From a candidate division WOR-3 bacterium (GTDB lineage: Bacteria; Hydrothermota; Tepidihabitantia; Tepidihabitantales; Tepidihabitantaceae): a DNA stretch of 64,000 nt. A program made the position numbers and the translations under genes. Below are positions 266 to 16,187 of the stretch, piece after piece. The notes under the pieces were generated by a model. It was given only the letters and a program-made list of their open reading frames with translations. It was not told where the DNA came from and ran no database searches. Location: positions 128,001 to 192,000 of the forward strand of contig CBFGIT010000001.1 of the NCBI GenBank assembly GCA_965648905.1, given 5' to 3'. Positions within the stretch are counted from its first letter, which is position 1, and every line of letters begins with the position of its first letter.

Positions 266-1798
266 CTACTGCTTGACCAGCCTCGCCCCGCCCCAAACCG
301 ACCAGTCCCAGTAATTGTTCTCAACAGTCTCTACGATGAGGTCCATCTGCTGCGCGCCTTCGACGGAGACGGAAACGGTCTTGCGGTCATCCCAGTCCAT
401 GACTCCGCTGTCATAGACCTTCTTGCCGTCGAGCCAGACCTGGAAGATGACGCTGCCGCGGCCACCCGCAAAGTCGCCCGGCACACCACGTCTGGGATTG
501 CCGGCGTCCCATAGTCCGATGTCGCTTTCAAACCGCTTGTACCGCCCGTTCAGTTTCCACCGCAGCCTAGCTGGTGCGTGTGTATGAAGTCCTCGTCGGT
601 AGGTCGTTCCGCAGATGACAATGGGTCGTCCTCTGAAAGCGTCCTTCTCTAGTTCACACTGTTCAACTTCGGCCGGCTGAAGGTCGCTGACGTACACCGT
701 TTCCTCGGGCGGCGGTGGCGGCTTGGTGGCGTGTTCAATATGTCGAAGGATGACCGCATCCAGATAGGTCTCTGCTTTGTGCGTGATCGTCCAGTCTTGG
801 TCATAGACCACAACCGCGGGCGGCTTGACGTCGAGCCTGCGAAGGAAATCCCGTTCGGCAATGGCGTTCTCGAAGCTGATGCCGGCTCCGGCCACGAATC
901 TCCGGGCCTCAACAGTATCGTCCGGATACGCCAGCACGCCGATGACTCTGAGCAGGTCTGAGCGAGTCTGCCGCGCCAACCGGTCAAGGGTTTTCATGTC
1001 CTCCTTCGTGCGCGCGTCGAGCGGGGTCCAGAAGTAGAAAACAGTCCGGGTGGGTAGGACCGGCCGACTTGATACCGAGTTGCGTCCGTCGAGTGCTGGC
1101 AAACGGAACTGCTCAGCAGCGGCTACGGATTTCCTTCTGGCCGGCGTTGGGGCTAACGGCGGGGGCATCCTGCTGCTCCGTACGTCTTCAGCAGACGTGA
1201 ACGGCACGCCAACCGCAAGCCTAGCCGCGGCATAAAGAGTACCAACTACCGGCGAGCCGGACGGCCCTATCAGGAGATATCCGACCTCCAGTCCGGTGAT
1301 GGCAAACAGGTGCAAGGCAGCATACAATGCGTAGTGCTTGCTGCCTTTCATCCCCCAGGCATTGCCCGTAGCCACGAAGGACAGGCTACTGAAATAGCCA
1401 ACCTTCCCAGCCATAATGGTGGTATCGGGATCGCTCAGCGGAAGGAGAAAACGCAACTCTGGCGTGAACAACCCGTAGCTCTCCATAGCCGACGGCCCAC
1501 AGGACCAGCCGTCAGCCACCGTGACACCAACACCAATCCCCGGCATGAGGCGGTTGCTGCCGCCAAGGCCATAGGTGAGTTTTAGGGCCTCGAACCTGCC
1601 CGTGAGTTTGTCAGGGCCAACTGGGAAACCAACCTCAGCGCCAACGAGCTCGAAGTAGTACCACTTGGCCATTAGTGGACTAAGTGATGCTATCAAGGCG
1701 ACAATCGTGCACACTCGGAAGGCCACCGTCTGAATCAACGGACTGCGAAAAGCGAACGATGACCTCGCGGAAACGAAGCTGGTGCCATACGTTTTCAC
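266..1798 (-). CDS. Exported multidomain protein: beta-rich N-terminal region, redoxin-like fold lacking CxxC, C-terminal NPCBM/NEW2 module
   Basis: C-terminal YVSDL...ICGTTYRRGLHTHAPARLRWKLNGRYKRFESDIG...GSVIFQVWLDGKKVYDSG...DWSVWGGARL matches NPCBM. The central TVFYFWTPLD...VIGV...PAVVVYD segment resembles TlpA/AhpC. GTG start overlaps the upstream stop. Confidence 0.75.
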   Translation of the reverse strand: MKTYGTSFVSARSSFAFRSPLIQTVAFRVCTIVALIASLSPLMAKWYYFELVGAEVGFPVGPDKLTGRFEALKLTYGLGGSNRLMPGIGVGVTVADGWSCGPSAMESYGLFTPELRFLLPLSDPDTTIMAGKVGYFSSLSFVATGNAWGMKGSKHYALYAALHLFAITGLEVGYLLIGPSGSPVVGTLYAAARLAVGVPFTSAEDVRSSRMPPPLAPTPARRKSVAAAEQFRLPALDGRNSVSSRPVLPTRTVFYFWTPLDARTKEDMKTLDRLARQTRSDLLRVIGVLAYPDDTVEARRFVAGAGISFENAIAERDFLRRLDVKPPAVVVYDQDWTITHKAETYLDAVILRHIEHATKPPPPPEETVYVSDLQPAEVEQCELEKDAFRGRPIVICGTTYRRGLHTHAPARLRWKLNGRYKRFESDIGLWDAGNPRRGVPGDFAGGRGSVIFQVWLDGKKVYDSGVMDWDDRKTVSVSVEGAQQMDLIVETVENNYWDWSVWGGARLVKQ

Positions 1799-4700
1799 TT
1801 CTTGTGCAGCCGATAGTTGAAGAACTGCTTCCCTTCGGTTACGGTCTCCAGCGCGAGGTGAGATTCGTAACCCTCCTTGGTGAGTACAAACGTATGTTGT
1901 CCGGCAGTCAGGTACGCTTCGGTCGTGGTGTAGCCGTATGACGTGCCGTCAATATGAACCAGCGCACTCTCGGGCTTTGAGTCAATCCGGACCTTCAGTA
2001 ACTGGCTGAGGGCGAAGGATAGTTGCGACGCTCCTGGCTCAACCGTTCTCCGTTCGCCTGATACAGTTGCGTACCCAGGTAGAAACAGGTCAAACCTGTG
2101 CTGGCCTAGCTCCAGATCAACCGTCGTTGGGGTCTTGCCCCAGGGCGTGCCGTCGATCGTAAGACTGGCGCCTTTGGGCTCGGACTCGATGCGCACTGAC
2201 TGCTTGCGGCGCACAGCAGAGGTCTCCTGCGGAGGAAAAAGTGGTGGCTTCGCTGAGCGCTTCTCTTCTGGCAGGGGATTCTTTGGCCTCTCCGTATTCG
2301 TCTCTTTCTCAGCAAATGCGTCCAGCGATACGAGCCCGAACCGACCTTCGCTTCGCCGGAATCTGACGGTACGGCCGCTCACGTCCACCACCTCAATACT
2401 TTCGCCTGGTGTGAGATGCCCATCCGGTCGATTGGTAGCGTAGTCCACAACAGGGGCTGCGCTCAGGACTTTGCGGAACTTGCCGTAAGGAAGAAAGGCG
2501 TCACTGTGAATCCAGCCCTCGCCTTGCGGGGTTCTGACCGAGTACCAGCGCTCGTCGCCGAGTGTTGAATCAACAACCTTGACTGTCGCGCCTGCTGACA
2601 GGGTTGCCTTGATAACGGAGTAGCGGTCCGCGCCTTCGCGCAGGTTCACCGACTCGCGTACGACTGTTTCGGTGCGGCCGCGAAACGCCCCGGCGTAGCA
2701 GTTCCATGCCTGCGGAGCTACACGACCGAGTAGCAAACCGCACAATCCCAACGGCACGAGTACCGCCCAATGCAGGTAGGCGTAGAGGTGCTCCTTAGGG
2801 ATGAGAGTAGTCAGGAGAACTGTGTAGAATGGCACGAGACCAAACAATACCTGAGGAGCTGCAAGAAAGACAAGCCCTGCGCTGAACACCCAGCACATTG
2901 CCTTCCAGAGCCACTGGGCACGCAGGAACAAGCCCAGAAACAAGGCTCCGAGCGCGACCGCAAGCACTGCAATGTCGAAGAGCGACCAGATTACGCCTGA
3001 GGTCGTGGCGAAGTAGGGCAGAAAGGCGAGCCCCGGAAACAAGGCGAGAAGGACAGCGGCCCAACGGTAGTCGGTCGTTGGTGCTGGCTTTGGTTTCCTG
3101 ACCGGTTTGCGTAGGGTTATCTTTCCCCACTTGACACCAGGTTTGACGTAGTCGGCCTTCCAGCCTGGCGGAAACTCCTCCAGCTTGAGCAATTCACGCC
3201 ACCTTTGTCTGAGCTTGTCCAGGTTGTCCAGTGTCGCCCGTTCTTCCTTGGTCATGTCAGCGCGATAGTCCGACGGCGTTAGCGCATCCAGCAAGTTCAG
3301 TGCCTGCTCCTGGACCTGCTTGTTCATGAGGTCCAGTTTCCACTTCGGAGCAAAGCTGGAGAGGTCGTCTGAGCGGTTCTTGACCTTGGTCATGAAGGTC
3401 TGGGCTCTGGCGATGTGCTGCGGTACACGCTCTACTCTTCTGACGAGCTCATTCAGCAAGTTGCCGGTCTCTTTGACAAGGTCGTCCATCTTTTCGTGCG
3501 CCTCGACCTTGGCCTTGCGAAGAACCTTCTCTCCGGCCCGGTATCCAACCTGAACAACCTTGTCAACCGTGAGGTCGGAATCACTGGTGAGTTTGTCTCG
3601 GTTGACAACCTCCACTTCGTGCTTCAACTGGTGCTCGGTAAGACCGCCTTTCGGGTGTATTTCCTGAACACCAAGCTTGTCCAGCCACCCACTCAGAAGC
3701 TCGCCCTGCTTCTCCGTGCGCAGCAGGTCAAACAGGCCAAGGCACTGCTCCGGCTCAGCCATCCCCTTTCGGGCCAGGCCGAGGACAAGGGCAAGGGAAC
3801 CAGCCTTGGCCCCAAGTTTCTCTTCGGTCTCACGTGCCAGCTTCCAGAGCGGCGGTTCATCGAGGGCCAGCTCAACCACGGCCTTCTTCTCCATGTCGGC
3901 GGACGCGAGTCTGAGACCGGGTTCAATCACACGAGCAACCAGGAGCTTGCCCTCCTGCGCGATGAACTCCTTCACGTTCTCCGGTGGTTGGGCGCCGCGG
4001 AACTCGTAGTTACCCAGTTCGGCTGGCGTGATGCTGGTGTCAATTACCGGCTCGACCAGTTCCAACCCGCCAAGACGGGCGATGTCTTCGTAGTCGGCCC
4101 GCTGGAAGCCGGCGCGGATGAGCTCCGCAGCCAGCTCGAAGAACACACGCTGGTCATGGTGTCTGGTCAGGAGCGACTGTACGAGCTGCTCGATCGTCTC
4201 AACGCGCTTCTTGTCGAGCTGGGCTGCCCGGCGGCGCACCGCGGTCCGCACCTTGTCAGCAGCGCTCTTGACCGGAGCGGCGCGGCTGCGCAGAGTCAGC
4301 ACACCGCGGAAAGCATCGTGGAAGCATTCCTTGGACGAAAACACATTGATGTCTGAACGACCGACGCGCTCAAGCACCAGCCCGGCCAGGGTCCTGAGTC
4401 CTTCGGTTCCGGCCCAGTCGCTCAGAATCAGGGTACGACATTGCGCATCGGGGTCAAGGTCTTTGACTGCCTTGGCAAGCGCAGGCAGCGTTGCCTCAAG
4501 CCCAGGGACTTCTGCCGATGCGAAGACAAATGGGCCGCTCCAGCGTTCCTCTCCCTGCAGCGCTGCCTGGAAGTCAGCGAATATCTGGTTCTCGTGCTCG
4601 GGGAATAGACGCAGGTGCTGCTCCAGTTCCTCGCGTTCTGCCTTGAGCCTGTTCCAGATCGCCTGCAAAGACAAGTCCGGCAACTCCTGTTGAGCCGCGA

Positions 4701-5058
4701 TGTCATAGTCCTTGACCACGCCGGCAAGCGCGGAACTGAATCCAATCGTCAGCACCAGAGTTGGCCCGCGCGACTTCTCGGCAAAGGCGTAGTAGACAGC
4801 CAAAAGTCGCGGCATAGGCGCCACCCGCTTGGCCAGCCGTTTGGGCAGGTCTACGCCAGCGAACACTGCAAGTTCCTTGGCTTTCATGACTTCGGGCAGG
4901 TCGACCAAGCTCGCGTTCTTGGGCGGCAACGTCCTCAGGTCGCCTACGCCGGTGCCTACTGCTATCGTGTACGTATCCTTGTCCCGCCACCGGTCAACAA
5001 TCGTCAATGATGCGGGCTTCGGCCGGCTGGCTTGATTCTCAGGTTGACTGGATGGCAT
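1795..5058 (-). CDS. Membrane protein with tandem GrpE-like modules, about 4-5 TM helices, SH3b-like domain(s) and two PEGA domains
   Basis: GrpE-like LGVQEIHP...VDKVVQVGYRAGEKVLRKAKV and VARVIEPGLR. SH3b VNLREG...WYSVRTPQGEGWI. PEGA IESEPKGASLTIDG...GKTP and IDSKPESALVHIDG. Confidence 0.75.
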   Translation of the reverse strand: MPSSQPENQASRPKPASLTIVDRWRDKDTYTIAVGTGVGDLRTLPPKNASLVDLPEVMKAKELAVFAGVDLPKRLAKRVAPMPRLLAVYYAFAEKSRGPTLVLTIGFSSALAGVVKDYDIAAQQELPDLSLQAIWNRLKAEREELEQHLRLFPEHENQIFADFQAALQGEERWSGPFVFASAEVPGLEATLPALAKAVKDLDPDAQCRTLILSDWAGTEGLRTLAGLVLERVGRSDINVFSSKECFHDAFRGVLTLRSRAAPVKSAADKVRTAVRRRAAQLDKKRVETIEQLVQSLLTRHHDQRVFFELAAELIRAGFQRADYEDIARLGGLELVEPVIDTSITPAELGNYEFRGAQPPENVKEFIAQEGKLLVARVIEPGLRLASADMEKKAVVELALDEPPLWKLARETEEKLGAKAGSLALVLGLARKGMAEPEQCLGLFDLLRTEKQGELLSGWLDKLGVQEIHPKGGLTEHQLKHEVEVVNRDKLTSDSDLTVDKVVQVGYRAGEKVLRKAKVEAHEKMDDLVKETGNLLNELVRRVERVPQHIARAQTFMTKVKNRSDDLSSFAPKWKLDLMNKQVQEQALNLLDALTPSDYRADMTKEERATLDNLDKLRQRWRELLKLEEFPPGWKADYVKPGVKWGKITLRKPVRKPKPAPTTDYRWAAVLLALFPGLAFLPYFATTSGVIWSLFDIAVLAVALGALFLGLFLRAQWLWKAMCWVFSAGLVFLAAPQVLFGLVPFYTVLLTTLIPKEHLYAYLHWAVLVPLGLCGLLLGRVAPQAWNCYAGAFRGRTETVVRESVNLREGADRYSVIKATLSAGATVKVVDSTLGDERWYSVRTPQGEGWIHSDAFLPYGKFRKVLSAAPVVDYATNRPDGHLTPGESIEVVDVSGRTVRFRRSEGRFGLVSLDAFAEKETNTERPKNPLPEEKRSAKPPLFPPQETSAVRRKQSVRIESEPKGASLTIDGTPWGKTPTTVDLELGQHRFDLFLPGYATVSGERRTVEPGASQLSFALSQLLKVRIDSKPESALVHIDGTSYGYTTTEAYLTAGQHTFVLTKEGYESHLALETVTEGKQFFNYRLHKK

Positions 5059-5128
5059 TTTCTTGCCCGGTCGGTCTTCGTCCAGTTGTCATGGCTTCTC
5101 GCGCCACCCCGTCCGTTCCCCTTCTGAG

Positions 5129-6322
5129 CTATCCGGTCTGCTCGACAACCACCCTTGGCTTGCGCAGGACCTCGCCAGTAGTGATGATGCGGTAGCCCGG
5201 CCCTTCGACCTCGGCGACTCGCACCTTCTCGCCGTAGCCGACAACGCGCACGATATCCAGGGACGCGCTGTCACCCACGGGGTCGTGCTTACGCGGAGCG
5301 AATTCCTCGACGCCGAGGTTTCGCATCAAACTCCCGCGCTCGGACTTCAGCTCATTGGTGTTCGTCTTGTCAAGGAGGTCGCAGAACGCGATGGGACGAT
5401 GGTAGACGGCAAGCTCGGTTAGTGCCCGGTCGAGCCGGTCAAGTGCGATGCCGAACTGGTTTCTGTCCTCGTCGAGTGTCGTCGGGTTGGTCCGCTCGGC
5501 CTTGCGTGTTAACTGCGCAAGGTTGTCTGCCATCTCCGTGGCGCCAAGGTAGATGCGGTACCTCTGTCCCATGTCAGAATCCCCCGCAGAGCTTGACCTC
5601 AGTTTCCTTACAAGCGCGCTCGTCGCTTGGGCTGTCGCGAGTATCGGGTGTCGAGCCTCGATGTCCTTCAGTGCGTCCCTGGCTCGCTGGGTAAAAGCCT
5701 GCTTTGCTTCCTTGAACCGCGCCGACTCCTGTTCTGACTGCAACTGCCTTATCTGGCCGGCCACCAATTGCGGCATCTTCGACAGCGCCTCGCGGGTCGC
5801 TGCGTCAGCCTGGTCTCGGGCCTTTGTCTGCTCATCGAGTCGCTGCTTCACCTCTGCCACATCATCGTGCAGTTTCTTCAGAGATTGCCTAAGACCCTCG
5901 AAGTCCGAACTTCTCTTATCGACTTCAACGTCTGGCTTCGACGCTTGCTCGCCTCTTCGCAGTATCCGAATTGAGGCTATCAGCAACGCGAGTCCGACAC
6001 CAAGCAGCGCTGTACTGAGCGCCAGGACAACCAGGGCTGTTACTGACACTCGAACCGCAGTACGGTCGGGTTCCTGCTGACCGCTGCTGTCAGGTAGTGC
6101 GGTGTCTGTATCGGGAGCGTGACTGCTCTCCTGCGCGGCAACTGCCGAAACGACGTCCTGTCCTGCGAGACTCCCGCTGTCTTGCTCGCTGGCCGTGCTT
6201 TCTGGCACAGGTTCACCCTTGTCCTGCTGCTGGGACGCGGGGCGTCTGCCCGCGCCGACCGCCAGCAATACAAAGAAGCAGGCTGCAATCATCAGGCCGG
6301 CCCGACTCATGGCAGTCCTCAT
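5129..6322 (-). CDS. Membrane-anchored coiled-coil protein with C-terminal GrpE-like domain
   Basis: Signal-like N-terminus, TM helix (VTALVVLALSTALLGVGLALLIA), coiled coil, C-terminal LGVEEFAP...VAEVEGPGYR...GEVLRKPRVVV. Start overlaps the Hsp70 stop. Confidence 0.7.
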   Translation of the reverse strand: MRTAMSRAGLMIAACFFVLLAVGAGRRPASQQQDKGEPVPESTASEQDSGSLAGQDVVSAVAAQESSHAPDTDTALPDSSGQQEPDRTAVRVSVTALVVLALSTALLGVGLALLIASIRILRRGEQASKPDVEVDKRSSDFEGLRQSLKKLHDDVAEVKQRLDEQTKARDQADAATREALSKMPQLVAGQIRQLQSEQESARFKEAKQAFTQRARDALKDIEARHPILATAQATSALVRKLRSSSAGDSDMGQRYRIYLGATEMADNLAQLTRKAERTNPTTLDEDRNQFGIALDRLDRALTELAVYHRPIAFCDLLDKTNTNELKSERGSLMRNLGVEEFAPRKHDPVGDSASLDIVRVVGYGEKVRVAEVEGPGYRIITTGEVLRKPRVVVEQTG

Positions 6323-8979
6323 CGCGATTTCACCTCCATCTTCTCACGCTTGCCGCCAATCTCGCAATACGCCTCAAGCTCGCCTTTGTCGGTTATCTTC
6401 AGGATGACCGGAATATCCCTGACGTTGGTTGACTGGACATTCTGCTCAAGCTGGTATGTGCGGTACGGGACTGTCTGGGGCTCCTGTCCCAAGGAGAGGT
6501 TCTCCTCCAATCGAAGCTCAAGCCCCGACCTGCTTGCGGCCTTGACAAGTTTGAGACCAGGTTTATCGGACCTGAACTCTTTTCCGTACTCCGCGCCCCA
6601 TGGCACAAGTGCCCTGAACGCCAAAGCGCCGGAGGCATCCCCTGTTGCGGCGCCGAGTCGGCCGACCTGCCGCCACCAGCGCCGCTCGCCCTGCAATTTG
6701 AACTCATCTGACACGCGCGTGTAAATAATCGCGCCCAAGGAAACACACTCCTTCAGGATAGGTCTGCCTGCGGAATCCCGGACGTAGTCAGTGCCCTCCG
6801 CAAACCGCGAGAACACCTGGGGCACTGTCGGCAGCAGAGAAGCCTTGCCGCACAGCAGAAGCCGGTCGGCCTTCTTCAGGTTGCATCTCCCCATGAAGAG
6901 GTCCATCTCCCTTTCGAAGTCCCGCAGGTATTTTCGTGCAATGCCGAGAATGTCGTCGATGGAAGCGTCTAGTTTCATTTGCTTTCCCCGCGCTATGTTC
7001 ACCGGGATTGCGCCCAGCTTCCTGATCTCCTTTATCCAGGTTCTGTATCTTTCGTTCTCTGGAATCGCGTGCAAGCTGCCGAGGCATTCCTCAAGCAGCC
7101 GATCGTCGCGGGGCACCAGAGGGTAGTCCGTCGTGGACTGCTCGCCGGCACCGGGTTTCACCACCTCTGATACCGCCAACTTGACCAGCTCAGGCGCCAC
7201 TGGCTCGAGATCTGGCGGCACGTCTCCCTGCTTCGCGATGTAACGCCCAACTTCAAGAGTCAGGACTGTGCCCCCCAGATTCTGGTCACCCCATGCACCG
7301 ATGACCTCTACCGTCTCTGGGCAACGACTGGTGCTCTCCCCCCGGTTACTCTGTGTTACGCGGAAAAGGGTAACATCAGTTGTGCCGCCGCCAAAGTCCA
7401 TGACCAGCAGAGTATACTCCGACCGAGACTTGATAGACTCGTCTCTGCGAGCACCACTGTAGAGGTAGTAAATGCCGGCTGCGAGCGATTCGTCAACCAC
7501 CTCCGGGTCCGCCACCTCCAGCCCCTTTGCTTGCGCGGCCTTCACGAACACGTCCCTCAGCACTTCGCGCTGATGAAGCGTGAACCTGGTAGGGACAGTG
7601 AACACCAGCCGCGTTGGCCGCGCTTTCAACTGACGTCGTGTGAGACGAAGCAACTCCATCACCGCGTACTGAGCAACGTCCTCGGCAGGTATCTCGCGCT
7701 CTTCGCCCTGCAGCACAAGCTTCTCAACGGCCCCAGTGCCAACCCGCGGCTTCACCGCACGGACGTAGCTCTCCCTGCGCAACCTCCCCAGTCGTGCAGC
7801 CTCCCTGCCGATGTCAAACACATACGGGGGTGTCCGGTCTTGCTTGTAGTCCCTGAAGTAGACGTCGGATATGATGACCGTCTCAGAGTCCTCAAGCACG
7901 AGATTGACCGGCTTCTGGCCATCCCAGCGGGCAACGGCCGATGCGCTCGTACCATAGTCGACAGCCAAGTCGTCCTTATAGACATCGTCCACAATCCGGG
8001 CATTGACTCTGCAGGTAGAAATTCTGGGGGCGTTGGACTTGAACTCGATCGTAACCGGTATACTGCCACGCGCCTTGGCCGTGGTCCGGGCCTCCAGCTT
8101 GACCTCGGCTGAGCCGCCGGCAGGAACCTCGCTCGCGCCAAGCTCGTAGGACCAACTCGCTTCAGGGTTGTCGCACTCCAGGACGACTTGCTCGATACGC
8201 AACGGGTCGTCGCCGACGTTCTGCAGCTTGACTTTAGTGGTACCACGGTCCTCAGGGTGTGTGTCGAAGTACTGAAGCTGACCGTCGGGAAAGACTATCT
8301 CCGGCGGGCGCTTGACTATCGCCTTGAACGTGCCGGTTAGAATCAGACTGCCAGTTCCGCTGCCGCGCGTCAGTGTGAAGCTGACCTTGGCTTCTCCGCG
8401 CTGCCGTGGGTCAACCTGCACGGGCACTTGAGCAGTTCCCTGGGCCAGCTTGACCGGTTGCCTCGGAACCTTGATACTCAGCAGATTCGGCTGGTCTACT
8501 TCTAATTCCAGGTCAGCCTCCAGGGCACAGTCCGAGGTGAAGCTGAGCATTGCCTCGGCTGAACCGAGGTAGACACTGACGTCTTTGACCGTGATGCTGC
8601 GCGGAGCAGGGAAGAGCCATATTTCGGCTTCGTTCAAGACCCCGAGGTCGTCGTAAACTGAGACGAAACACGACCTTGGAAACACCCCCGCCTGTCCCGG
8701 GTCGACAGTAATCTCGACTCTGGTTTCGTGCTGGCCGACGCTGCGATCTTGCCCAGAGATTCGGACCCACTGTTCGTGCTGGAATCTAAGCACCGAGAAA
8801 GCGCCTGGCGAGCGGTCACGAACCTGGAACGACTCGGTAACCGACGTGCGCTTCTCCCGGTCAACGTAGAGGTTGACCGTCTCAAACAACTCGTGCCCGC
8901 AGAGTGAGCAGTACCGGTCGCCGGACAGCGGCTCCCAGTTGCCACACTTGGGGCATCTCTCTTGTGGCGCCGGTCTCAT
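6319..8979 (-). CDS. Hsp70-family protein with N-terminal Zn ribbon and Ig-like domains
   Basis: CPKC...YCSLCG; Ig-like LQNVGDDPLRI; Hsp70 NBD motifs LAVDYGTS, VFTVPTRF, VDESLAAG, VMDFGGGTTDVT, GDQNLGG, VSLGA. Confidence 0.85.
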   Translation of the reverse strand: MRPAPQERCPKCGNWEPLSGDRYCSLCGHELFETVNLYVDREKRTSVTESFQVRDRSPGAFSVLRFQHEQWVRISGQDRSVGQHETRVEITVDPGQAGVFPRSCFVSVYDDLGVLNEAEIWLFPAPRSITVKDVSVYLGSAEAMLSFTSDCALEADLELEVDQPNLLSIKVPRQPVKLAQGTAQVPVQVDPRQRGEAKVSFTLTRGSGTGSLILTGTFKAIVKRPPEIVFPDGQLQYFDTHPEDRGTTKVKLQNVGDDPLRIEQVVLECDNPEASWSYELGASEVPAGGSAEVKLEARTTAKARGSIPVTIEFKSNAPRISTCRVNARIVDDVYKDDLAVDYGTSASAVARWDGQKPVNLVLEDSETVIISDVYFRDYKQDRTPPYVFDIGREAARLGRLRRESYVRAVKPRVGTGAVEKLVLQGEEREIPAEDVAQYAVMELLRLTRRQLKARPTRLVFTVPTRFTLHQREVLRDVFVKAAQAKGLEVADPEVVDESLAAGIYYLYSGARRDESIKSRSEYTLLVMDFGGGTTDVTLFRVTQSNRGESTSRCPETVEVIGAWGDQNLGGTVLTLEVGRYIAKQGDVPPDLEPVAPELVKLAVSEVVKPGAGEQSTTDYPLVPRDDRLLEECLGSLHAIPENERYRTWIKEIRKLGAIPVNIARGKQMKLDASIDDILGIARKYLRDFEREMDLFMGRCNLKKADRLLLCGKASLLPTVPQVFSRFAEGTDYVRDSAGRPILKECVSLGAIIYTRVSDEFKLQGERRWWRQVGRLGAATGDASGALAFRALVPWGAEYGKEFRSDKPGLKLVKAASRSGLELRLEENLSLGQEPQTVPYRTYQLEQNVQSTNVRDIPVILKITDKGELEAYCEIGGKREKMEVKSR

Positions 8980-9025
8980 GCGGGTCTTCTCCTAGTATCG
9001 TACGCCGCTGCCCGCGGACGTCATG

Positions 9026-12000
9026 CTAGAGACCTGACCGGTCGACCCAGGCTTCCTTCTTCAACGCCGGGAACTTGGCGTACTGGGGCCAGTCGAGGAA
9101 CTCACCGACCTGGTTTCTGACCCAGTCAGCCAGCGCGTCTCCGGCAAGGCCTTTCGGAGGCAACTCCAGATTGCCCGCAGCCTGCGAGACCGCCTTGTGC
9201 TTTGCGTCCACAAGCTCGTGTTCCGATGTCCCAACTGTGAAGCCGGGCTGCGAGGAGAGATACATGAGGACGTAGCTATACGCCTTACGCTCCTGCTCGC
9301 TCAACGCTGCCTCACGCTCGCTGATAACAGCCAGCAACCGACCTCGAAGCCCAGCGTCATGCATCAAAGTATCCATGGCTTCTTTGCGGTTTTTCCCGAG
9401 TTCGATGTCAGCAATACGGCCGACTTTGACCTTGCAGTACCCATATGCCGTCACGCGGTCCTTCTCGTAGCGCCGGATGACTCCCAAAATCGAGCCAAAC
9501 AGCAGGGCCTCAAGTGACTCCTTGGCGACGTGCGCGTCCTGTTCGGAGTACAACACCAGGTCATCAAATTGCCCTTCCCAGCGCTTGTCCAGGTGGAGCG
9601 GTATCTGGTAGTAGAGCTTGCCGAACTGCCGATTCTCACGCAGGTCCCGGTAGAATGAATAATAGGCATCGTGACAGGCACCGGAGACGACCGGTACGGC
9701 CGGCAGAGGAAAGGCATAGCAGATTGTGTACAAGAACACCTCACTCTTCCGTGTGGACTTGAGAACCTGAAGCTGGTAGTCACGGGAGGCCAGCGCACCG
9801 CCAAGCTCCTTCTCTAGTGCATCAACGGTGTTCTTGTCCGCATCGGCTGATACACCCAGGTAGGCTTCGCGCTTAGCTTTGACCGGCTTGCCACCAAAGT
9901 GACCGGTCAGCTTGACCAGGGGCAGTCCGGCCAGAGCCAGATCGGTCGCCCAAGCCTTCAGGGACTTCTTGGTGAACTCGGGGTGGGTAAGCACGTCCTC
10001 GTCGCGCGGGTATGAAGCAAAGTCCTGAGTGAATCGGTTGTCGCAGAACTTGGCAAGCAGCGCGCGTACCCTCTCCATGCTCTCTTGAAAACGGAAGTCA
10101 GCAAACTCAAGCAGCGACATTGGTCTTGGCAGCCCTTCGTGGGCCAGGAAGCCCTTGGCTTCGCTTGCGGCAGACACTGGTTCTCCACGGAGCCTGTAGA
10201 AGCCGGGCCAGTCGCGGTCATAGTTGAATATGCGTATGAAGAGCACATCGTCACCAGGGCGGAGGCGTGCGGTCTTTTCTTCCAAGAACGGCCCAGTCAT
10301 GGCCTCCATGTCGGTTAGGAATTGTGGCAACCGGGATGTGCGACTGACAAGATACGACGCCGCATCCATGACCGCCTGCTGGCACAGCCCGTAGAGCACC
10401 GCCTCGGCTCGGGCAAAGCCAAACTGCGCCTCGGCGTCCTTGACTTTGTCGGCAAGCAACTTGACCGAGAAGTCGCGTTCGTTCAATAGGCCGACCTTAC
10501 TGTTCGTCACAGCCTCGGTGAGCTCGTCAAGGAACCGGTCCCTCTCTCCCTGCCAGAGACCGGCGTCCTTCTCGGCCCTTTCGCGGCGCTTCGCGCAATC
10601 GGACTGGTCGGACGTGAACACGGTCTGAAGCTGCTCTTGGATTCTCGCCAGATACCCGGTCTTCTCGGCCAGCAGCCCGCGCAGTCCTCGTCCCGGTTCC
10701 TCCAGGCACCTGACCAACCATTGCTCCATTACGGTCTTCAGTTGCTCGGTGACCGCGGGCAGCTTCACCTTGAGCCGATGCGGAATATTGATGTCGGCGT
10801 CCAGCCGAGCCGTGTCCATGCCAACGTAATGCGTGTCCACGTCGTTGAGCGCCTTGCGTGCTTCCTCGATGTCGGCAAGCGTGCAACTGCCGGCTTTCGA
10901 GCGCAGGCCGGCAACTGCGCTGTCTGCTGCCTGCGTGAGTTTGTCGCGCCAGCCGGTGTCGAATCTGCGCGCAACGCCATCCAGCGTGAGCCCGAAGTCA
11001 GCCAAGTCGTGCTGGATGCTTCCGACCATGTCTGGGTCGGCGCAAGGCCGGACCCAGTAGCTGGCAATGTCGTGGCCAAGTTGGGCAGCGCAGGCGCCGC
11101 GGAGGGCATCAACCGGTATCTCAATCTTGCTCATGCCAAATGACCCGTAGCGCCGTGAGTACTCCTGAACCAGAGCCATCTGATCAACCTTGACGTTGGC
11201 GCCTTCGCCGCCTTCTAGGTACTGAACAACGTTGCTGTAGCTTGAGCGCTTGATAGTCGAGAAAGCACTGGGCATGAAGTCCATGTAGAGCGACTCGGCA
11301 ACCATGCGGAATAGCTCCTTCCTGGACTTGATGCCAACCTTCTCGTTCTCGGCACCAAGAACGTAAGTAACGTCAACCGGTGGACCCACGAGGGATTGCG
11401 GGTCGCCTTTTGTCCAGACTACATCGAACGTGGCTATTCCCTTCTTGCGTTTTTCGGACCTGGCCTGGCTGTCACCGGTCTGCTCACTGCCGGAATCGGC
11501 CTCGTCCACACAGAATGTGTAGTGCTCAAGCTCCTTGAGCGCGGCATAGGCATTGGCATAAGAGCGCTTGGACTGCTCGTCACTGAGGCTGCGGAAGTAT
11601 ACATCCGGCAGAACGCAGATGCCGGCAACGTGTTTGAACTGCTTCTGCATCTTTTTCTGAAGCAGAGTCAGCAGAAACGTCGTGTCCAGGAACGAACCGC
11701 CGCCCGTGCCACCCGCGACTGAGAAAACAATGAACACCTGAACGCCCAGGTCGAAGTCGTTCATTGTCGTTCCCGGCAGGAACTCCTGGGTCGCGCGGAG
11801 GTCCGGGAGCATGAGGAGGTCCCGGGAGAGCTTGTCGATGATCCCTTGCACCCGCTCGTGGTGGTAGAAGAACGCCAGCCGACCAATGGAACGGACGTTG
11901 CCGGCACCATCAGAGATTTTCCCGCCTTTCCGCTCTACTTCCGGGTACAGCCAGTCATGAATGTAGCCCCAGCGACCCCTGTTGTCAAAGACGTCAACAA

Positions 12001-12274
12001 AAGCCTGTCCAACTTCACCCTCGAGCAGCGCAAGGCTGTCTGTGTCAGTGAATCTGACCGACTCGTAGATGATATCTAGTGGCTCTCCCCACGCGCCTCC
12101 AGCTCTGATGTCGGTATCCAGCCACAGGTAGGCAACGCAAGGCAACCCGGGCATGTTGAAGTTCTCGTAGAACTTTCTTCGGAGCCGCAGCAGTACTTCC
12201 TTCCCGGTTCCGCCCAGGCCGATGAACAGGGTCGGCCTGATTGCACCGCCCTTCTCTTCTCTTGCAGGTGGCAT
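9026..12274 (-). CDS. Tubulin/FtsZ-like GTPase (Tubulin_2-type) with long helical C-terminal region
   Basis: PTLFIGLGGTGKEVLLRLR, DGAGNVRSIGRLAF, FSVAGGTGGGSFLD, ANAYAALKEL. GGAGG RBS. Confidence 0.9.
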   Translation of the reverse strand: MPPAREEKGGAIRPTLFIGLGGTGKEVLLRLRRKFYENFNMPGLPCVAYLWLDTDIRAGGAWGEPLDIIYESVRFTDTDSLALLEGEVGQAFVDVFDNRGRWGYIHDWLYPEVERKGGKISDGAGNVRSIGRLAFFYHHERVQGIIDKLSRDLLMLPDLRATQEFLPGTTMNDFDLGVQVFIVFSVAGGTGGGSFLDTTFLLTLLQKKMQKQFKHVAGICVLPDVYFRSLSDEQSKRSYANAYAALKELEHYTFCVDEADSGSEQTGDSQARSEKRKKGIATFDVVWTKGDPQSLVGPPVDVTYVLGAENEKVGIKSRKELFRMVAESLYMDFMPSAFSTIKRSSYSNVVQYLEGGEGANVKVDQMALVQEYSRRYGSFGMSKIEIPVDALRGACAAQLGHDIASYWVRPCADPDMVGSIQHDLADFGLTLDGVARRFDTGWRDKLTQAADSAVAGLRSKAGSCTLADIEEARKALNDVDTHYVGMDTARLDADINIPHRLKVKLPAVTEQLKTVMEQWLVRCLEEPGRGLRGLLAEKTGYLARIQEQLQTVFTSDQSDCAKRRERAEKDAGLWQGERDRFLDELTEAVTNSKVGLLNERDFSVKLLADKVKDAEAQFGFARAEAVLYGLCQQAVMDAASYLVSRTSRLPQFLTDMEAMTGPFLEEKTARLRPGDDVLFIRIFNYDRDWPGFYRLRGEPVSAASEAKGFLAHEGLPRPMSLLEFADFRFQESMERVRALLAKFCDNRFTQDFASYPRDEDVLTHPEFTKKSLKAWATDLALAGLPLVKLTGHFGGKPVKAKREAYLGVSADADKNTVDALEKELGGALASRDYQLQVLKSTRKSEVFLYTICYAFPLPAVPVVSGACHDAYYSFYRDLRENRQFGKLYYQIPLHLDKRWEGQFDDLVLYSEQDAHVAKESLEALLFGSILGVIRRYEKDRVTAYGYCKVKVGRIADIELGKNRKEAMDTLMHDAGLRGRLLAVISEREAALSEQERKAYSYVLMYLSSQPGFTVGTSEHELVDAKHKAVSQAAGNLELPPKGLAGDALADWVRNQVGEFLDWPQYAKFPALKKEAWVDRSGL

Positions 12275-12285
12275 GTTATCCTCCT

Positions 12286-12885
12286 CTAGTTTCCTTTAGC
12301 ATCTTGCCTGGTCCTGCCAGACCCTGGGTCGGCAACGTCCGGCCGGGAGAACCTGCTGCCCGCAGGCTCGGCCTCCTCGGTTCCGGTGGACCAGTCGCTG
12401 TTGTCTTCAGCCGTCGGTGTGATTACCGGCAGGACGAACCAGCACAAGGCGGCAGTTGCTGCCGCGACAACGATAGCTACGAGAATCAGCACCCAGCCCA
12501 GCGCGCGCGCCATCAGCACTATCGCCACGATGAAGAGCAGTCCGGCAGCCCCGGCAAGCCAGTACCAGGAGAATGTGCCGGCCAACCCGACCGCAACCGC
12601 GGCAGCCAGAAAGCACACGGCGTACCCAAGTCCGGCCGAAGCTGCTGAAGCGACCGAGGCGTCCTGACGCAGCAGCTTGCGGTACACACCCCGGCCTGCG
12701 ACCCAGCCGAGGAAGACTGCGACCAGCATTACGACAATCCTTGCTATCCACAGGAACCCTTCAACTAAGTGAGCAGTCACGCTCCACTGCAGCGCCTGGG
12801 TTGTGACTACGAAAGTGCTGATGAACACAAGCGCGATGAATACGAGCCAGTATAACGGGCCGAGTCCATGTCGTTCTTTGGCCAT
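12286..12885 (-). CDS. Multi-pass membrane protein
   Basis: About 5 hydrophobic segments. Start moved from 12915 to ATG 12885, which has a GGAGG RBS. Confidence 0.7.
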   Translation of the reverse strand: MAKERHGLGPLYWLVFIALVFISTFVVTTQALQWSVTAHLVEGFLWIARIVVMLVAVFLGWVAGRGVYRKLLRQDASVASAASAGLGYAVCFLAAAVAVGLAGTFSWYWLAGAAGLLFIVAIVLMARALGWVLILVAIVVAAATAALCWFVLPVITPTAEDNSDWSTGTEEAEPAGSRFSRPDVADPGSGRTRQDAKGN

Positions 12886-12904
12886 GTTACCTCCTGGTAG
12901 GGCC

Positions 12905-14434
12905 TTATGAGTCACTGGGACGACCGCGCCTTTCGGGCCGTTCCTTTCGATCTTCTCTGGTCTTTCTGCGTATCGGACCGCAGACCATCAGTATCGTCGT
13001 GCCGTCGTGCCGCTTCAGAGAGAACTCAAGACCCGGCACTAGTCTGACGTACTCCTGCCCGTCAGTCAGCCTGTACCGCATCGCCGGCCGGAAAACGTGC
13101 CCGACGTCAACCTTCCCCAGCGTATCACGCTCCATAATCAGCTCGCCGGTATCGCTGTCAATCCGGCACTGGACATCCCGGTCGTGCAGCCGGGCAAAGA
13201 CCTGGAGCCGCCGCTGCCCCAGCAATGGTTTGACCAGCCGATAAGTCACCAGGCACGCGGCGATGACCAGTGCCAGTATCACGAGCAGCAGCAGGGCCGG
13301 CAAGGGCCCGTAGTCGGCCTCCAGCGGTATCGTCACCAGAGTGCTGCAACTGACGGTTCTTTCGCTCAACTCAGCGGGCAGTCGGTTGATTCCGAACACC
13401 TTGCCCTCGCGACGAGCATCTTCCGGAGTAGCCGCGTCGTACTTCGTCTGGTACTCGCGCGTCAGCGACAGGTCGCTTGGCCGGATGCTGACGACCACCG
13501 GCAGTTCCATCGGTGCATTGACCCTGCCGCCGGCGAACGCTGCCTTCAGCAGGCTGCCGGTCAGCGTCACCTTGCTCTTGTAGCGCATCTTGAACCCGGG
13601 ACCGGTGCTCTGGCCCGGACCCAGCCCCGGAAGTGTAGTGGGCTGAACGCTGTACTTCACAGGTGCGAGGCCGAGCCCGGACTTGCCTGCTGCGGCCGTG
13701 CGAATCAGTCTTGGCGTGTCGATCTTCGCACTCGAGAAGCTGATATGGCTGAAGCAACTGACGAATCCAATCTGGACCGAATCGCAGATGCTCTGGCCCA
13801 GGATGTACTTGCGGGCCCGGGGTTTGTGCACCGGCTCGGCCTTCACGGTGTTCCGGCCCAGAGGCTTAACGAGGAGTGCTTCGGTCTGGTAGTTCTTCTG
13901 AACACGCCCGGAAAGAGCGCTCTTCATCTGCTCGAACCGCGCGTCCTGGTTCCAGTCAAGCAGCAGCGCATACACGGTCAAGCCCTGTGTTCCCGCAGGC
14001 TGCAGAATCGGAAAGAAGTAGACCTTCTTGACTCGAGGTCCTTTGAGCAACTCGTAGAACTTGTCCAGGTGTGCGCCTTCCGGATTGCCCGGCTGGTGCT
14101 GGATGTTGTCGGTGACAATCCAACCGATGTCGTACTTGCGGTCGAGCACGTACTTCGCCGCCTTGTCAATCTCGGTGAACGACCAGGCGAAGTTCTCGTA
14201 GGCAAAATCCTTGTCGCCTGTTGACTTGACCGGCTTGACTTCTGTGCTGAACACGGCCAGGTCGGGCTTGCCGTACTCGCTGCATACGGCAAGCAGGACA
14301 CGGGTGAGGTCTTCGACTGAACCGCGCTCGAAGTAAGGCTTCATGCTGCCTGACCGGTCAACGAGCACTACCTGACCGGCCAGTGCAAGTTGGCCAAGAA
14401 GGACGAATCCGACCAGCCGTGTCAACCTTGCCAT
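12905..14434 (-). CDS. vWA-domain protein with signal peptide and internal TM helix
   Basis: Signal peptide, then VVLVDRSGSM (DxSxS MIDAS), later WIVTD; TM LPALLLLVILALVIAACLV. Confidence 0.8.
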   Translation of the reverse strand: MARLTRLVGFVLLGQLALAGQVVLVDRSGSMKPYFERGSVEDLTRVLLAVCSEYGKPDLAVFSTEVKPVKSTGDKDFAYENFAWSFTEIDKAAKYVLDRKYDIGWIVTDNIQHQPGNPEGAHLDKFYELLKGPRVKKVYFFPILQPAGTQGLTVYALLLDWNQDARFEQMKSALSGRVQKNYQTEALLVKPLGRNTVKAEPVHKPRARKYILGQSICDSVQIGFVSCFSHISFSSAKIDTPRLIRTAAAGKSGLGLAPVKYSVQPTTLPGLGPGQSTGPGFKMRYKSKVTLTGSLLKAAFAGGRVNAPMELPVVVSIRPSDLSLTREYQTKYDAATPEDARREGKVFGINRLPAELSERTVSCSTLVTIPLEADYGPLPALLLLVILALVIAACLVTYRLVKPLLGQRRLQVFARLHDRDVQCRIDSDTGELIMERDTLGKVDVGHVFRPAMRYRLTDGQEYVRLVPGLEFSLKRHDGTTILMVCGPIRRKTREDRKERPERRGRPSDS

Positions 14435-15876
14435 ATCAGCGCCCTCATCTCCTGCTGGTTGGTGACGTAGATGTGCATGAGGCCATTTCCAATCGGGATG
14501 AACGTGACACCTTCAGCATAGTCCTTCAGTTGTGCCACACGCAGCTCTCCATGTTCGCGTGCCGGGCCGTAGAATCTGATGGTGCCGCCCGCGGTCGGCG
14601 CAACTCGACCGATGGTCACGCCGCTCACATGGCCGGGCAGGCCGTCAGGGACGAGTTCCTCATCCTCTGTCAGCTTAGTGAAGCTGCAACCGCTGTATTT
14701 GACAATCGCCCCCTTGGTGTGGAGTAGTGGTTCACCCGTCTCGCTATCCTGACAAATGACCATCGACTCACCCTTAGGCAGGATGGCAGGTGTACACACG
14801 AGCCTGGAATCGAGACTGCCGATAACGGAGAGCGCCGGCTTTCCGTTTCTCGTCCCAAGCACATAGGCAGAACTAGAGCTCACAAAGCAGGGCATGGTGC
14901 CAACTGCGGTATGCACACCCGCACTCTGCCGTCCCTCCTGGGGTGTCAGGAATGGCTGGAACCCCTTGGGCCAGTCAAGTGCCGCAACGCCGTTGTCTGA
15001 CAACACATGCACGGCCTCGGCCGTGTAGCAGAAAACACGCCCGCGGAAGAACCACGGGCCTGCCACCTGACCTTCGGTGACGACAGGAATTGCCTTTGCG
15101 TTCTCGGGCGCGTCACGCGGAACTTGGACGAGTTCAGCAGCAGTCCCTTTCTGAGCTAGCAGATACCACGCGCCGAGGCTGGGGTCTTCTGCCAGCAGGT
15201 GGCAGTTGTTCTCGATGTCCGACAGGAAGCGGTCGTGTCCGACAGCGGAGCAGACCTGATGCCAGCCCCTGGTCACCAGGTTAACGGCAACCAGATGCTC
15301 GCTGCTGGCAGCCAGCCCCACCGGGACCTTTGTCTTGTCTGACTTGCTCGACCGCACGGAGAGCAGCAGCGAGGAACGTCCGAACTCCTCGGGCAGAGAG
15401 ACAATCAACTCGGCTTGCTTGGCGCGAAGCGCCAGCCGGTAGAAACGGCCGCTTGCGGTCAAGAACCAAAGGAACTGGGCCAACATCTTCGGTGGTTCGC
15501 GGATGACGTCTGGCACTTCAACCAGTTGTGGAGTTGGGGGCTCAGGCAACTGTTTGCCTTCGGTCGAGGAAGGAACCGTAGAGGTCGAAGGGCCGCCAAA
15601 GCCAGGGTAGTACCGACTCAGGGTGCGGCTGATATTGGTGAAGTCGGAGATTCTTGCTCTATTGACTTCCCCGCCGCAGCACCGACAGAACTGCGCCAAG
15701 GTCTGATTGACGGCACTGCACTTCGGCTTCGCGCAGACACTCGCCGGTCGTCCGCACTCAGCGCACCACGCTGCGTTGTCAATACGTTCCATCACGCTGC
15801 TGTTACAGCCTGGGTATGGACAACCAGTCCGGAAACGTTCCGGATAACGTGAATCTATGCCGACGTCTTCTGCCAT
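14422..15876 (-). CDS. Zn-ribbon protein with beta-rich (propeller-like) C-terminal region; first gene of the operon
   Basis: CPYPGC, CAECG, CAKPKC, FCRCCG. Start moved from 16362 to ATG 15876 (GAGG upstream, promoter at 15948-15975). Confidence 0.7.
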   Translation of the reverse strand: MAEDVGIDSRYPERFRTGCPYPGCNSSVMERIDNAAWCAECGRPASVCAKPKCSAVNQTLAQFCRCCGGEVNRARISDFTNISRTLSRYYPGFGGPSTSTVPSSTEGKQLPEPPTPQLVEVPDVIREPPKMLAQFLWFLTASGRFYRLALRAKQAELIVSLPEEFGRSSLLLSVRSSKSDKTKVPVGLAASSEHLVAVNLVTRGWHQVCSAVGHDRFLSDIENNCHLLAEDPSLGAWYLLAQKGTAAELVQVPRDAPENAKAIPVVTEGQVAGPWFFRGRVFCYTAEAVHVLSDNGVAALDWPKGFQPFLTPQEGRQSAGVHTAVGTMPCFVSSSSAYVLGTRNGKPALSVIGSLDSRLVCTPAILPKGESMVICQDSETGEPLLHTKGAIVKYSGCSFTKLTEDEELVPDGLPGHVSGVTIGRVAPTAGGTIRFYGPAREHGELRVAQLKDYAEGVTFIPIGNGLMHIYVTNQQEMRALIWQG

Positions 15877-15947
15877 TCTGGTTCTGATTACCTCACAAAC
15901 TAACGGCTCGTCTCCTCTTGAGGCCAAACTGGCCGACTGAATAGGAA

Positions 15948-15975
15948 AATATACGTACCTTGGCCTGGCAGTCAA
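15948..15975 (-). promoter_or_regulatory. sigma70-like promoter of the tubulin/Hsp70 operon
   Basis: TTGACT-N16-TATATT on the minus strand, about 70 nt upstream of ATG 15876. Confidence 0.55.
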
Positions 15976-16187
15976 GCACTTCCTCGACTCTCCGGAACCA
16001 TCATGGACAACCCACCGAAGTTGTGGCGTGTGGGAGGCATGGATCAAAGGTCGGGAGGTGAATTGGCGCTCGTGGTGGCTCAATTTCGCTTTCAGGACGT
16101 GGACGACTGTGTCGTTGACAGCCCTGGGGGCAGAAGTATACTGCTCCTCGTGACCACGCAGTCTGAGCCGGTTGCCCCAATCCGAGC

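Follow-up and report, generated by a model that had tools for sequence, protein, structure and literature searches.

Here, we describe a cluster of minus-strand genes in a candidate division WOR-3 bacterium that joins a tubulin-like GTPase and a vWA protein to an Hsp70 of its own and to two membrane proteins carrying GrpE-like domains. The cluster occupies positions 266-15975 of a 64,000-nucleotide (nt) stretch of DNA, referred to below as the window, which corresponds to positions 128,001 to 192,000 of contig CBFGIT010000001.1 (assembly GCA_965648905.1). Its first seven genes, g1 to g7, constitute a rare, conserved and horizontally scattered gene module that is complete in the window and accessory to the genome. 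The unit is best placed among the FtsZl1-vWA operons described by Makarova and Koonin (2010; PMC2875224), as a variant of the predicted FtsZl1-vWA/tubulin-Hsp70 conflict-type systems. The distinctive feature of the module is its membrane-anchored GrpE homologues.

Between positions 266 and 15975, eight genes run in the same direction on the minus strand, each overlapping the next or lying no more than 70 nt from it in the list of open reading frames (ORFs). Calculated from the ORF coordinates, four junctions are overlaps, of 13, 11, 4 and 4 nt, and the other three are gaps of 11, 46 and 70 nt. With the longest frame of g1, the eight minus-strand ORFs span 266 to 16362, and no rival long frame is backed by a family match. 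An earlier interpretation of the sequence alone, hereafter the sequence-only reading, had described eight co-oriented, tightly spaced minus-strand genes, and the ORF coordinates bear this out. Its labels Tubulin_2, HSP70, SH3_3, PEGA and NPCBM were recovered by Pfam, and its redoxin label for g8 was not; its extent of eight genes has to be lengthened, as a ninth minus-strand gene follows g8 and leaves the window.

The gene order g1-g2-g3-g4-g5-g6-g7, which the sequence-only reading had required to be conserved elsewhere, recurs in other genomes. It is found in a genome of the same family and another genus (locus L070 in our numbering, genome G217), whose tubulin-like protein is 43% identical by tblastn and 45% identical in the genome search, in metagenome-assembled genomes (MAGs) of Bryobacteraceae/Bryobacterales (Acidobacteriota) and in many JGI metagenome contigs. 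Eighty-two related loci were fetched and homologues of each gene were mapped in them by iterated profiles; 58 of these loci carry an ortholog-like tubulin gene. g1, g2 and g3 accompany the tubulin gene in 31 of the 31 ortholog loci with at least 3.5 kb of upstream sequence, an Hsp70 of at least 500 amino acids (aa) is encoded in 23 of the 28 for which 3 kb or more of downstream sequence is available, and a protein with a GrpE-like domain is present in 15 of the 17 that have both an Hsp70 and at least 6 kb downstream. The remaining two of these 17 (L077 and L143) encode a Pfam GrpE protein (E 1.5e-11 and 1.4e-5) beside a divergently placed Hsp70 pair. Hsp70 also occurs in 11 of 14 loci of a distant tubulin subfamily.

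The orthologues, where a source name is given, come from candidate division WOR-3, Acidobacteriota, Bryobacteraceae, Pyrinomonadaceae and Acidisarcina. Within the phylum of the window the module is present in 2 of 272 genomes, the window's own included, and no close homologue of g4 or g5 was found in 40 relatives drawn from the same genus, family and order. In a sample of 400 further genomes of the phylum to which the Bryobacteraceae MAG belongs, none had a g4 orthologue at E 1e-60. Phage records gave no tubulin match, and plasmids yielded distant Tubulin_2 genes only. A scan of genome contigs with the Hsp70 alignment was swamped by generic Hsp70 patterns and returned three useful loci.

The tubulin-like protein is encoded by g4 (9026-12274; this and the other operon genes below are on the minus strand). 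This FtsZl1/Tubulin_2 GTPase of 1082 aa matches Pfam family PF13809 (Tubulin_2) at E 2.1e-57, with 195.4 bits against a cut-off of 27, over profile positions 1-353 of 356. Its GTPase domain spans approximately residues 16-402 (window 11069-12229) and is followed by a long conserved C-terminal region. G21, G22, G24, K25 and E26 are invariant across 58 homologues, as are S185, G188, G189, T190, G191 and G193; we take the glycine-rich loop and the GGTGxG signature to be the tubulin T1 and T4 loops. The orthologue set is sharply bounded in the protein collection, where 87 entries of approximately 1080 aa match at E <= 3e-127 and the next full-length matches stand at about 1e-70, with two partial matches in between. 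A profile search of the genome found g4 to be its sole Tubulin_2 copy. The genome also encodes FtsZ, and we rejected g4 as the main division protein because of this separate FtsZ.

Following the tubulin gene, g5 (6319-8979) encodes a protein comprising a zinc ribbon, an Ig-like region, an Hsp70 ATPase domain and a beta-rich C-terminal part. The Pfam HSP70 family is matched at 33.4 bits (cut-off 20.6), and the Zn_ribbon_3 and DUF1573/Ig-like matches lie under their cut-offs. The N-terminal third is made up of the zinc ribbon and Ig-like sandwiches, and the last ~125 residues are beta-rich. Within the ATPase domain, at approximately residues 335-760 (window 6700-7977), the nucleotide-binding motifs are invariant among 28 homologues (D341, G343 and T344; K410; D496 and E497; D528, G530-T534 and D535; G711). 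In a search with the family profile, DnaK ATPase domains came up at E 2e-23, with DLGTTNS, NEPTAAAL, DLGGGTFD and VGGATRVP aligned to the family motifs. g5 thus shares the ATPase motifs of DnaK and differs from it in its N-terminal zinc ribbon and Ig-like region and in having no lid or substrate domain recognisable by sequence. An NCBIfam scan returned DnaK, HscA and GrpE matches, all far under cut-off. The protein collection holds a family of zinc-ribbon-Ig-Hsp70 proteins of approximately 900 aa, and the g5 Hsp70 profile at E <= 1e-30 retrieved 267 of 1.84 billion cluster representatives; among the top 150 matches listed, some are giant repeat proteins that match the Ig-like part alone, repeatedly. 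The genome has in addition a standard grpE-dnaK pair (154 and 885 bits), and the Hsp70 and GrpE copies of the operon are therefore dedicated ones.

The two genes downstream of g5 encode membrane proteins, g6 (5129-6322) and g7 (1795-5058), whose GrpE-like segments are identified as GrpE homologues by profile comparison. A profile built from 33 segments of g6, g7 and their relatives matches the solved GrpE chains 3a6m_A at E 6.1e-7 and 8gb3_E at E 2.7e-6, the next chain standing at 0.12, and the homology spans both the helical bundle and the beta-domain. A domain profile made from the g6 relatives finds two segments in g7 (E 1.1e-14 and 2.7e-19), at residues 301-397 (window 3868-4158) and 435-520 (window 3499-3756). 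One of these overlaps a Pfam GrpE match at residues 455-519, which stands at 25.9 bits, just over the cut-off of 25.8, and reaches 29.8 bits when the genome is searched. In other loci, the genes directly after Hsp70 include six more whose products score 24.8-28.5 bits for Pfam GrpE. The description of g7 as a "multi-GrpE" protein is correct in that GrpE-like segments are present, and their number can now be given as two.

The architecture of g6 consists of an N-terminal hydrophobic segment, a low-confidence stretch of ~70 residues that probably lies outside the cell, a transmembrane (TM) helix at approximately residues 94-126, an 89-residue helix, a helical bundle and a GrpE-like beta-domain at residues 308-394 (window 5141-5401). 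An AlphaFold2 model from 11 sequences has a mean pLDDT of 77.2, with values mostly above 90 from residue 150 and a block at 241-250 of 74. In a Foldseek search with this model, ranks 1-10 are all GrpE chains, with E-values from 1e-3 to 1.4e-2, none of them below 1e-3, and probabilities of 0.85-1.00; the TM-scores, 0.25-0.41 by target length, are low, in keeping with a long flexible helix. That the GrpE-like segments would adopt the GrpE fold is thus borne out by the 33-segment profile and by the Foldseek ranking of the model. The layout of long helix, bundle and beta-domain in the g6 model is shared with GrpE itself; the operon's proteins differ from GrpE in carrying the GrpE-like part at the C-terminal end or in the interior of a membrane protein, and twice in g7. 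Recognition depended on the comparison made: BLASTP found no similarity between g6 and g7, single g6 and g7 sequences retrieved nothing useful from solved structures, and the whole-length g6 family profile retrieved coiled-coil look-alikes only, so that the cut-out domain was needed for the GrpE match.

In g7, an N-terminal domain (residues 1-300) precedes the two GrpE-like segments, which are followed by a coiled coil, four or five TM segments (667-778) and then SH3_3 (E 1e-8) and two PEGA domains (E 6e-23). The ESM Atlas features of residues 1-300 (window 4159-5058) lie nearest to MreB/MamK/actin-fold clusters (0.91, 110 shared features). Hhalign gave no support for an actin/MreB/Hsp70-like identity of this domain: comparison with the Hsp70 family yielded a probability of 0.2, and comparison with the second Hsp70-like protein of L143 did not favour it either. 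Hydrophobic segments occur in every operon product except g1, g4 and g5. From these segments and the charges around them we infer that the GrpE-like domains reside inside the cell and the SH3, PEGA and vWA parts outside.

The three genes upstream of the tubulin gene complete the module. g1 (14422-15876 from the likely ATG, in a frame open to 16362) encodes a double zinc ribbon, a linker and a beta-propeller, which makes its earlier label as a zinc-ribbon and beta protein more specific. Eight cysteines are conserved among 31 homologues: Cys52, Cys74, Cys86 and Cys97 are invariant, Cys57, Cys71 and Cys81 are nearly so, and one more appears in the consensus. The AlphaFold2 model, from a 31-sequence alignment, reaches a pLDDT of 82.8 and a pTM of 0.82; it shows a disordered stretch at residues 1-48, the zinc-ribbon region and a propeller at residues 150-515, which resembles WD40/BamB/TolB-type propellers at E ~2e-7. 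A hydropathy script finds no hydrophobic segment in g1, which we list as cytoplasmic. g2 (12905-14434) encodes a signal-peptide-like N-terminus leading directly into the motif LVDRSGSM of a vWA domain, followed by a beta-rich region, one TM helix (378-396), a basic stretch and a tail of ~110 residues. Its label as a vWA protein with a TM segment is supported by metal-ion-dependent adhesion site (MIDAS) residues D26, S28, S30, T87 and D109, invariant across 29 homologues, by that single TM helix and by matches of the family profile to the vWA structures 8s05_A, 5a8j_A and calcium-channel alpha2delta at E 3e-3 to 8e-3; the Pfam vWA-TerF-like score, 14.4 bits, is below its cut-off of 29.4. The basic stretch after the TM helix places the vWA domain probably outside the cell and the tail in the cytoplasm. 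g3 (12286-12915) encodes a small protein with four hydrophobic, presumably TM, segments found by the same script.

The adjacency of g1 and g2 parallels that of ArnA and ArnB of Sulfolobus, where a gene for a zinc-ribbon protein likewise adjoins one for a vWA protein. The profile matches to these proteins are weak: g2 matches 8s05_A and 5a8j_A (VWA2) at E 3e-3 to 7e-3, and g1 matches 8s05_C and 5a8i_A (ARNA) at E 0.29-0.4, by way of the zinc ribbon. The g2 and g1 profiles touch two chains, A and C, of the one PDB entry 8s05, as well as the separate VWA2 and ARNA chains. ArnA carries an FHA domain where g1 has a propeller, and ArnB is not known to be a membrane protein. There is a hint here that g1 and g2 might pair as the archaeal proteins do.

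Beyond the shared genes, related loci vary mainly in what surrounds or extends them. The g7 counterpart of the Bryobacteraceae locus, which retains the N-terminal part and a GrpE-like segment, ends in WD40 repeats instead of SH3/PEGA and is followed by a gene for an RHS-repeat protein. Elsewhere, the GrpE-like gene is followed by genes for TPR proteins and an amidohydrolase, and other loci hold a weakly kinase-like/zinc-ribbon/TPR protein or a PP2C phosphatase; locus L089 encodes an M14 peptidase-YkuD wall enzyme. Neighbours of conflict type in the relatives comprise RHS-repeat proteins, caspase-FGE-sulfatase fusions, MNT-HepT pairs, ParE and PP2C. In the distant subfamily, a YhgA-like transposase gene and two MNT-HepT fusion genes stand between the vWA and 4-TM genes (L124 6634-9320, L125 4584-7315 and L130 6879-9537), and in L123 and L124 the tubulin gene has caspase-FGE-sulfatase fusion genes downstream of it. 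A tandem pair of tubulin-like genes precedes the Hsp70 gene in L101 (9038-15678) and L103 (3351-9986), the second copy of L103 being in two pieces. An alternative layout, seen in L077 (948-6549), L143 (636-6455), L084 and L106, has the zinc-ribbon-Ig-Hsp70 gene and a second, shorter Hsp70-like gene divergently upstream of g1 on the opposite strand; in L077 and L143 it includes the GrpE protein.

Two bodies of computational work bear on how the operon is to be classed. FtsZl1-vWA operons have been proposed, from their membrane-associated neighbours, to act in membrane remodelling (PMC2875224). These operons share with the present one the tubulin family, a vWA partner with intact MIDAS, membrane neighbours and the long C-terminal region. 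The main text of that paper contains no mention of Hsp70, DnaK or GrpE and stresses kinase, GTPase and OmpA partners, which are absent from this operon. Among the FtsZl1 neighbours listed in its supplement, without comment there, are Cagg_1315 (annotated GrpE, 1083 aa, directly after the FtsZl1 gene) and amb2961 (annotated DnaK, 1626 aa); the FtsZl1 loci with such neighbours are those of Chloroflexus aggregans and Magnetospirillum magneticum. The seven-gene module, with its zinc-ribbon propeller, zinc-ribbon-Ig-Hsp70 and membrane GrpE-like proteins, was not found described in the portions of that paper covered.

The second is section 29 of Kaur, Burroughs, Iyer and Aravind (2020; PMC7159879), in which tubulin-vWA and Hsp70-GrpE modules are proposed to belong to membrane-proximal conflict systems. 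There, the tubulin and Hsp70-GrpE themes are called non-overlapping and are found mainly in Firmicutes and Actinobacteria. The DO-GTPase/GAP1-N2 systems in that text resemble the operon in combining tubulin with vWA, and Hsp70 with GrpE (sometimes with a second Hsp70), and in having zinc ribbons and SH3/PEGA beyond TM segments; the operon differs from them in uniting both themes and in fusing GrpE domains to membrane proteins. No DO-GTPase or GAP1, the defining proteins of GAP1-N2 systems, was found on scanning the operon and the related loci, where none of 155 neighbour proteins matched the DO-GTPase, GAP1 or J-domain families of Pfam. In the genome, which is 99.6% complete, PF20013 (GAP1-N2) and PF19993 (DO-GTPase2) were not found by searches whose controls were found in Corynebacterium, and PF19975 (DO-GTPase1) was not found by a search whose control matched nowhere. 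Since the operon lacks both defining features, it is not assigned to the DO-GTPase/GAP1-N2 systems. Pfam detected no P-loop GTPase or kinase in the operon, in agreement with the earlier remark that no Ras-like GTPase or kinase partner is visible there.

The sequence-only reading knew of no characterised system with this combination. That statement holds for experiments and has to give way to the computational prior art of PMC2875224 and PMC7159879. The literature searched contains no exact match to a described system, and no paper describing the seven-gene module was found; the figures and source data of PMC7159879, which could hold related neighbourhoods, were outside the coverage of these searches.

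How might the parts work together? The sequence-only reading had proposed a trans-envelope machine, of which the domain anatomy, the conservation and the dedicated Hsp70-GrpE set stand, while Hsp70 control of a polymer, sensing and mutual binding of the parts stay conjectural. We propose, tentatively and with a likelihood somewhat short of even, a chain in which the cytoplasmic GrpE-like domains of the membrane proteins act on the g5 Hsp70, and g5 in turn acts on g4 or on the g2 tail. The GrpE-like domains of g6 and g7 would be nucleotide-exchange factors for the operon's own Hsp70. They would be tethered to the membrane and fused to variable far-side domains, SH3 and PEGA here and WD40 or other modules in relatives, and by virtue of this fusion a ligand in the envelope or outside the cell would alter the local rate of Hsp70 cycling. 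At the membrane, the Hsp70 may then act on the tubulin-like polymer or on the cytoplasmic tail of g2 by loading, remodelling or releasing it, and the output of the system would presumably be GTP-dependent assembly of the FtsZl1 protein. In our view the module more probably serves envelope surveillance or conflict, as a defence-type response, than growth or division. We favour this role because the module is patchily distributed, has variable outward-facing parts, lies beside certain conflict-type genes in some relatives and is akin to predicted conflict systems.

Several observations weigh against this chain or against the role given to it. Five ortholog loci (L096, L097, L098, L099 and L119) have no Hsp70, and the tubulin-vWA core can therefore exist without it. 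Loci from related organisms and samples are not independent, so that the counts given above overstate the number of independent observations. When g5 was compared with DnaK by sequence profile, the aligned stretches ended within the ATPase domain, and its C-terminal ~125 residues did not align to a substrate-binding domain or lid. Pfam found no J-domain family among the 8 operon proteins or the 10+19+126 neighbour proteins, the rest of the genome lying outside this search; the canonical Hsp70 cycle is therefore incomplete unless a housekeeping DnaJ serves it. Membrane topology was read from hydrophobic segments and charge distribution with a crude hydropathy script. PADLOC-DB 2.0 models run on the operon gave a best E of 0.0078 and no match covering a domain. 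On either side of this copy lie ordinary genes of metabolism and the envelope, among which Pfam showed no mobile or defence genes. The literature searches returned only computational work on members of the module, and no experiment on FtsZl1 proteins since 2010.

Some of the tests of g6 as a GrpE also belong on this side. Pfam GrpE was not matched by g6 at E <= 0.1 and was matched weakly (E 0.0042) by 1 of 11 g6 relatives, and hhalign of the g6 family with the genome's single GrpE aligned the correct region at a probability of 0.3. A rigid-body comparison of the g6 model by VIA-align returned generic helical bundles, with Z up to 9.1, and no GrpE among the best 50 rows. We attribute the negative and neutral GrpE tests to the far divergence of these sequences. 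A complex prediction for g5 residues 330-760 with g6 residues 136-397 scored 0.32, compared with 0.29 for the control, and speaks neither for nor against binding.

The loci without Hsp70 are of two kinds. In L097 an integrase-like gene stands directly after the tubulin gene, and in L096, L098, L099 and L119, which are related contigs, a zinc-ribbon/Ig fragment of the Hsp70 gene of ~125 aa is kept in that position, which suggests a loss of the chaperone half. In these four the fragment is followed by unrelated genes, for example one for a family 1 glycosyl hydrolase.

The alternative that survives best would make the module a cytoskeletal or membrane-remodelling apparatus of normal physiology, serving, for example, to form vesicles, to place surface structures or to handle the wall locally, with Hsp70-GrpE as an assembly regulator only and no part in conflict. 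Membrane remodelling is what PMC2875224 argues from the membrane-associated gene neighbours. Wall or glycan binding is indicated by SH3, PEGA and NPCBM in the window and by the M14-YkuD protein of L089, and the polysaccharide-synthesis genes in the flanks and the lack of a PADLOC match agree with such a role. The module is too sporadic for a core function, however, with 2 of 272 genomes of the phylum and none other in the genus, and some relatives adjoin toxin-like and caspase-type genes. We consider this apparatus somewhat unlikely. Unlikely too is a more specific version of the surveillance role, in which g6 and g7 would be transmembrane receptors with an exchange-factor output. An outside ligand would then change local Hsp70 cycling and thereby trigger or dissolve the polymer, and the whole would be an envelope immune or surveillance device related to the DO-GTPase conflict systems and working without their GTPase switch.

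The Hsp70 and its GrpE-like partners could instead form a biogenesis device, which would pull, fold or insert the exported and membrane proteins of the operon (vWA, SH3/PEGA and NPCBM) and would leave g4 unregulated. Hsp70 motors drive protein import elsewhere, as the membrane-tethered Hsp70/GrpE of mitochondria does, and in the operon both GrpE-like proteins are membrane anchored and hydrophobic segments are found in all products outside g1, g4 and g5. Bacterial export motors, however, push from the cytoplasmic side, Pfam found no translocon component in the module, and Hsp70 stays linked to the tubulin gene in loci with other exported accessory parts as well. We regard this device as improbable.

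Little probability attaches, in our judgement, to an FtsA-like arrangement, in which the Hsp70-like protein would be an actin-fold tether or co-polymer of the tubulin-like filament and the GrpE-like proteins would be anchors rather than exchange factors. An adjacent pair of tubulin- and actin-fold genes recalls ftsA-ftsZ. As in that pair, the gene for a tubulin-superfamily GTPase adjoins one for an actin/Hsp70-superfamily ATPase, with attachment to the membrane, and the Bryobacteraceae g5 orthologue scores 25.7 bits for MreB_Mbl and 23.5 bits for FtsA, both under cut-offs. The families here are Tubulin_2 and HSP70, however, the module is accessory and the FtsZ of the genome is encoded separately. 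HSP70 is also the best-scoring family for g5 and the DnaK ATPase domain its best structure match, and the conservation of GrpE homologues would be expected mainly where an Hsp70-type nucleotide cycle operates. That the genes are chance neighbours or several unrelated units, as the 46-nt and 70-nt gaps at two junctions might just allow, has a negligible probability and was rejected on the overlapping stop and start codons at four junctions and the same gene order in distant taxa and dozens of unrelated contigs.

The borders of the operon lie outside the seven-gene module. On the upstream side, the limit is set by a divergent plus-strand TrkA-N/RCK gene at 16188-17324. A sigma-70-like promoter match on the minus strand at 15948-15975 (TTGACT, a 16-nt spacer, TATATT; 10 of 12 consensus positions) is a sequence consensus match only and lies ~70 nt upstream of the likely start codon of g1; the region contains 10 promoter-like sites against 3.2 expected. 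The sequence-only reading had placed the start of the operon at 15975, which was not borne out, since the TTG at that position coincides with the -35-like hexamer TTGACT. g1 probably starts at the ATG at 15876, in agreement with the lengths of the homologues and with the disorder of residues 1-48 in the model. The strongest of the promoter-like sites, with 11 of 12 positions matching, is on the plus strand at 16115-16142 and faces the TrkA-N/RCK gene at 16188, so that the intergenic space may hold two back-to-back promoters. A search for sequencing runs covering window 6300-16200 listed none, and none of RNA.

On the downstream side, the module is followed by g8 and g9, whose homologues in these positions occur, among the fetched loci, in the window and its nearest relative L073 only. 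g8 (266-1798), a lineage-specific addition to the module, encodes N-terminal hydrophobic segments and a C-terminal carbohydrate-binding domain of the NPCBM/CBM51 type, which matches Pfam NPCBM at E 7e-30 and the carbohydrate-binding module 2vmg_A at E 2.8e-8. A possible thioredoxin-like region has no CxxC, reaches thioredoxin chains at E 0.72 and 1.6 only and has no Pfam match at E <= 0.1, which leaves the redoxin label unconfirmed. The operon continues past position 266, as g9 starts at 186, 79 nt after g8; its start occupies positions 1-186 of the window on the minus strand and the gene runs ~1.9 kb past the window start (L151:13066-15186:-), ending against a convergent transglutaminase-like gene. 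The 706-aa product has five or six C-terminal hydrophobic segments and a DVSQS...TDG motif, read by eye as vWA-like, and matches no Pfam family at E <= 0.01; it shares 30% identity over 239 residues (E 3e-16) with the product of the gene after g8 in L073.

A second, separate cluster with another dedicated Hsp70-GrpE pair is found on contig 51 of the same genome (L155, 1114-11995, minus strand), in a setting like that of a conflict system. The pair consists of a 182-aa GrpE (43.6 bits) and an Hsp70-like protein of 540 aa; the cluster also encodes three AAA ATPases, one of them fused to a Ser/Thr kinase, two FGE-sulfatase-domain proteins and a HEAT protein.

The host organism is uncultured, and FtsZl1 proteins occur in many phyla; for these proteins the module offers a concrete, testable wiring. 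If the proposed chain holds, signals would cross the bacterial membrane by a new route and the Hsp70 cycle would be put to a new use; were g6 and g7 to act as receptors, this would be a signalling principle not known in bacteria. The chain would also mean that two themes of the predicted DO-GTPase conflict systems, tubulin-vWA and Hsp70-GrpE, do not need the GTPase in order to act jointly, a point relevant to the construction of those systems.

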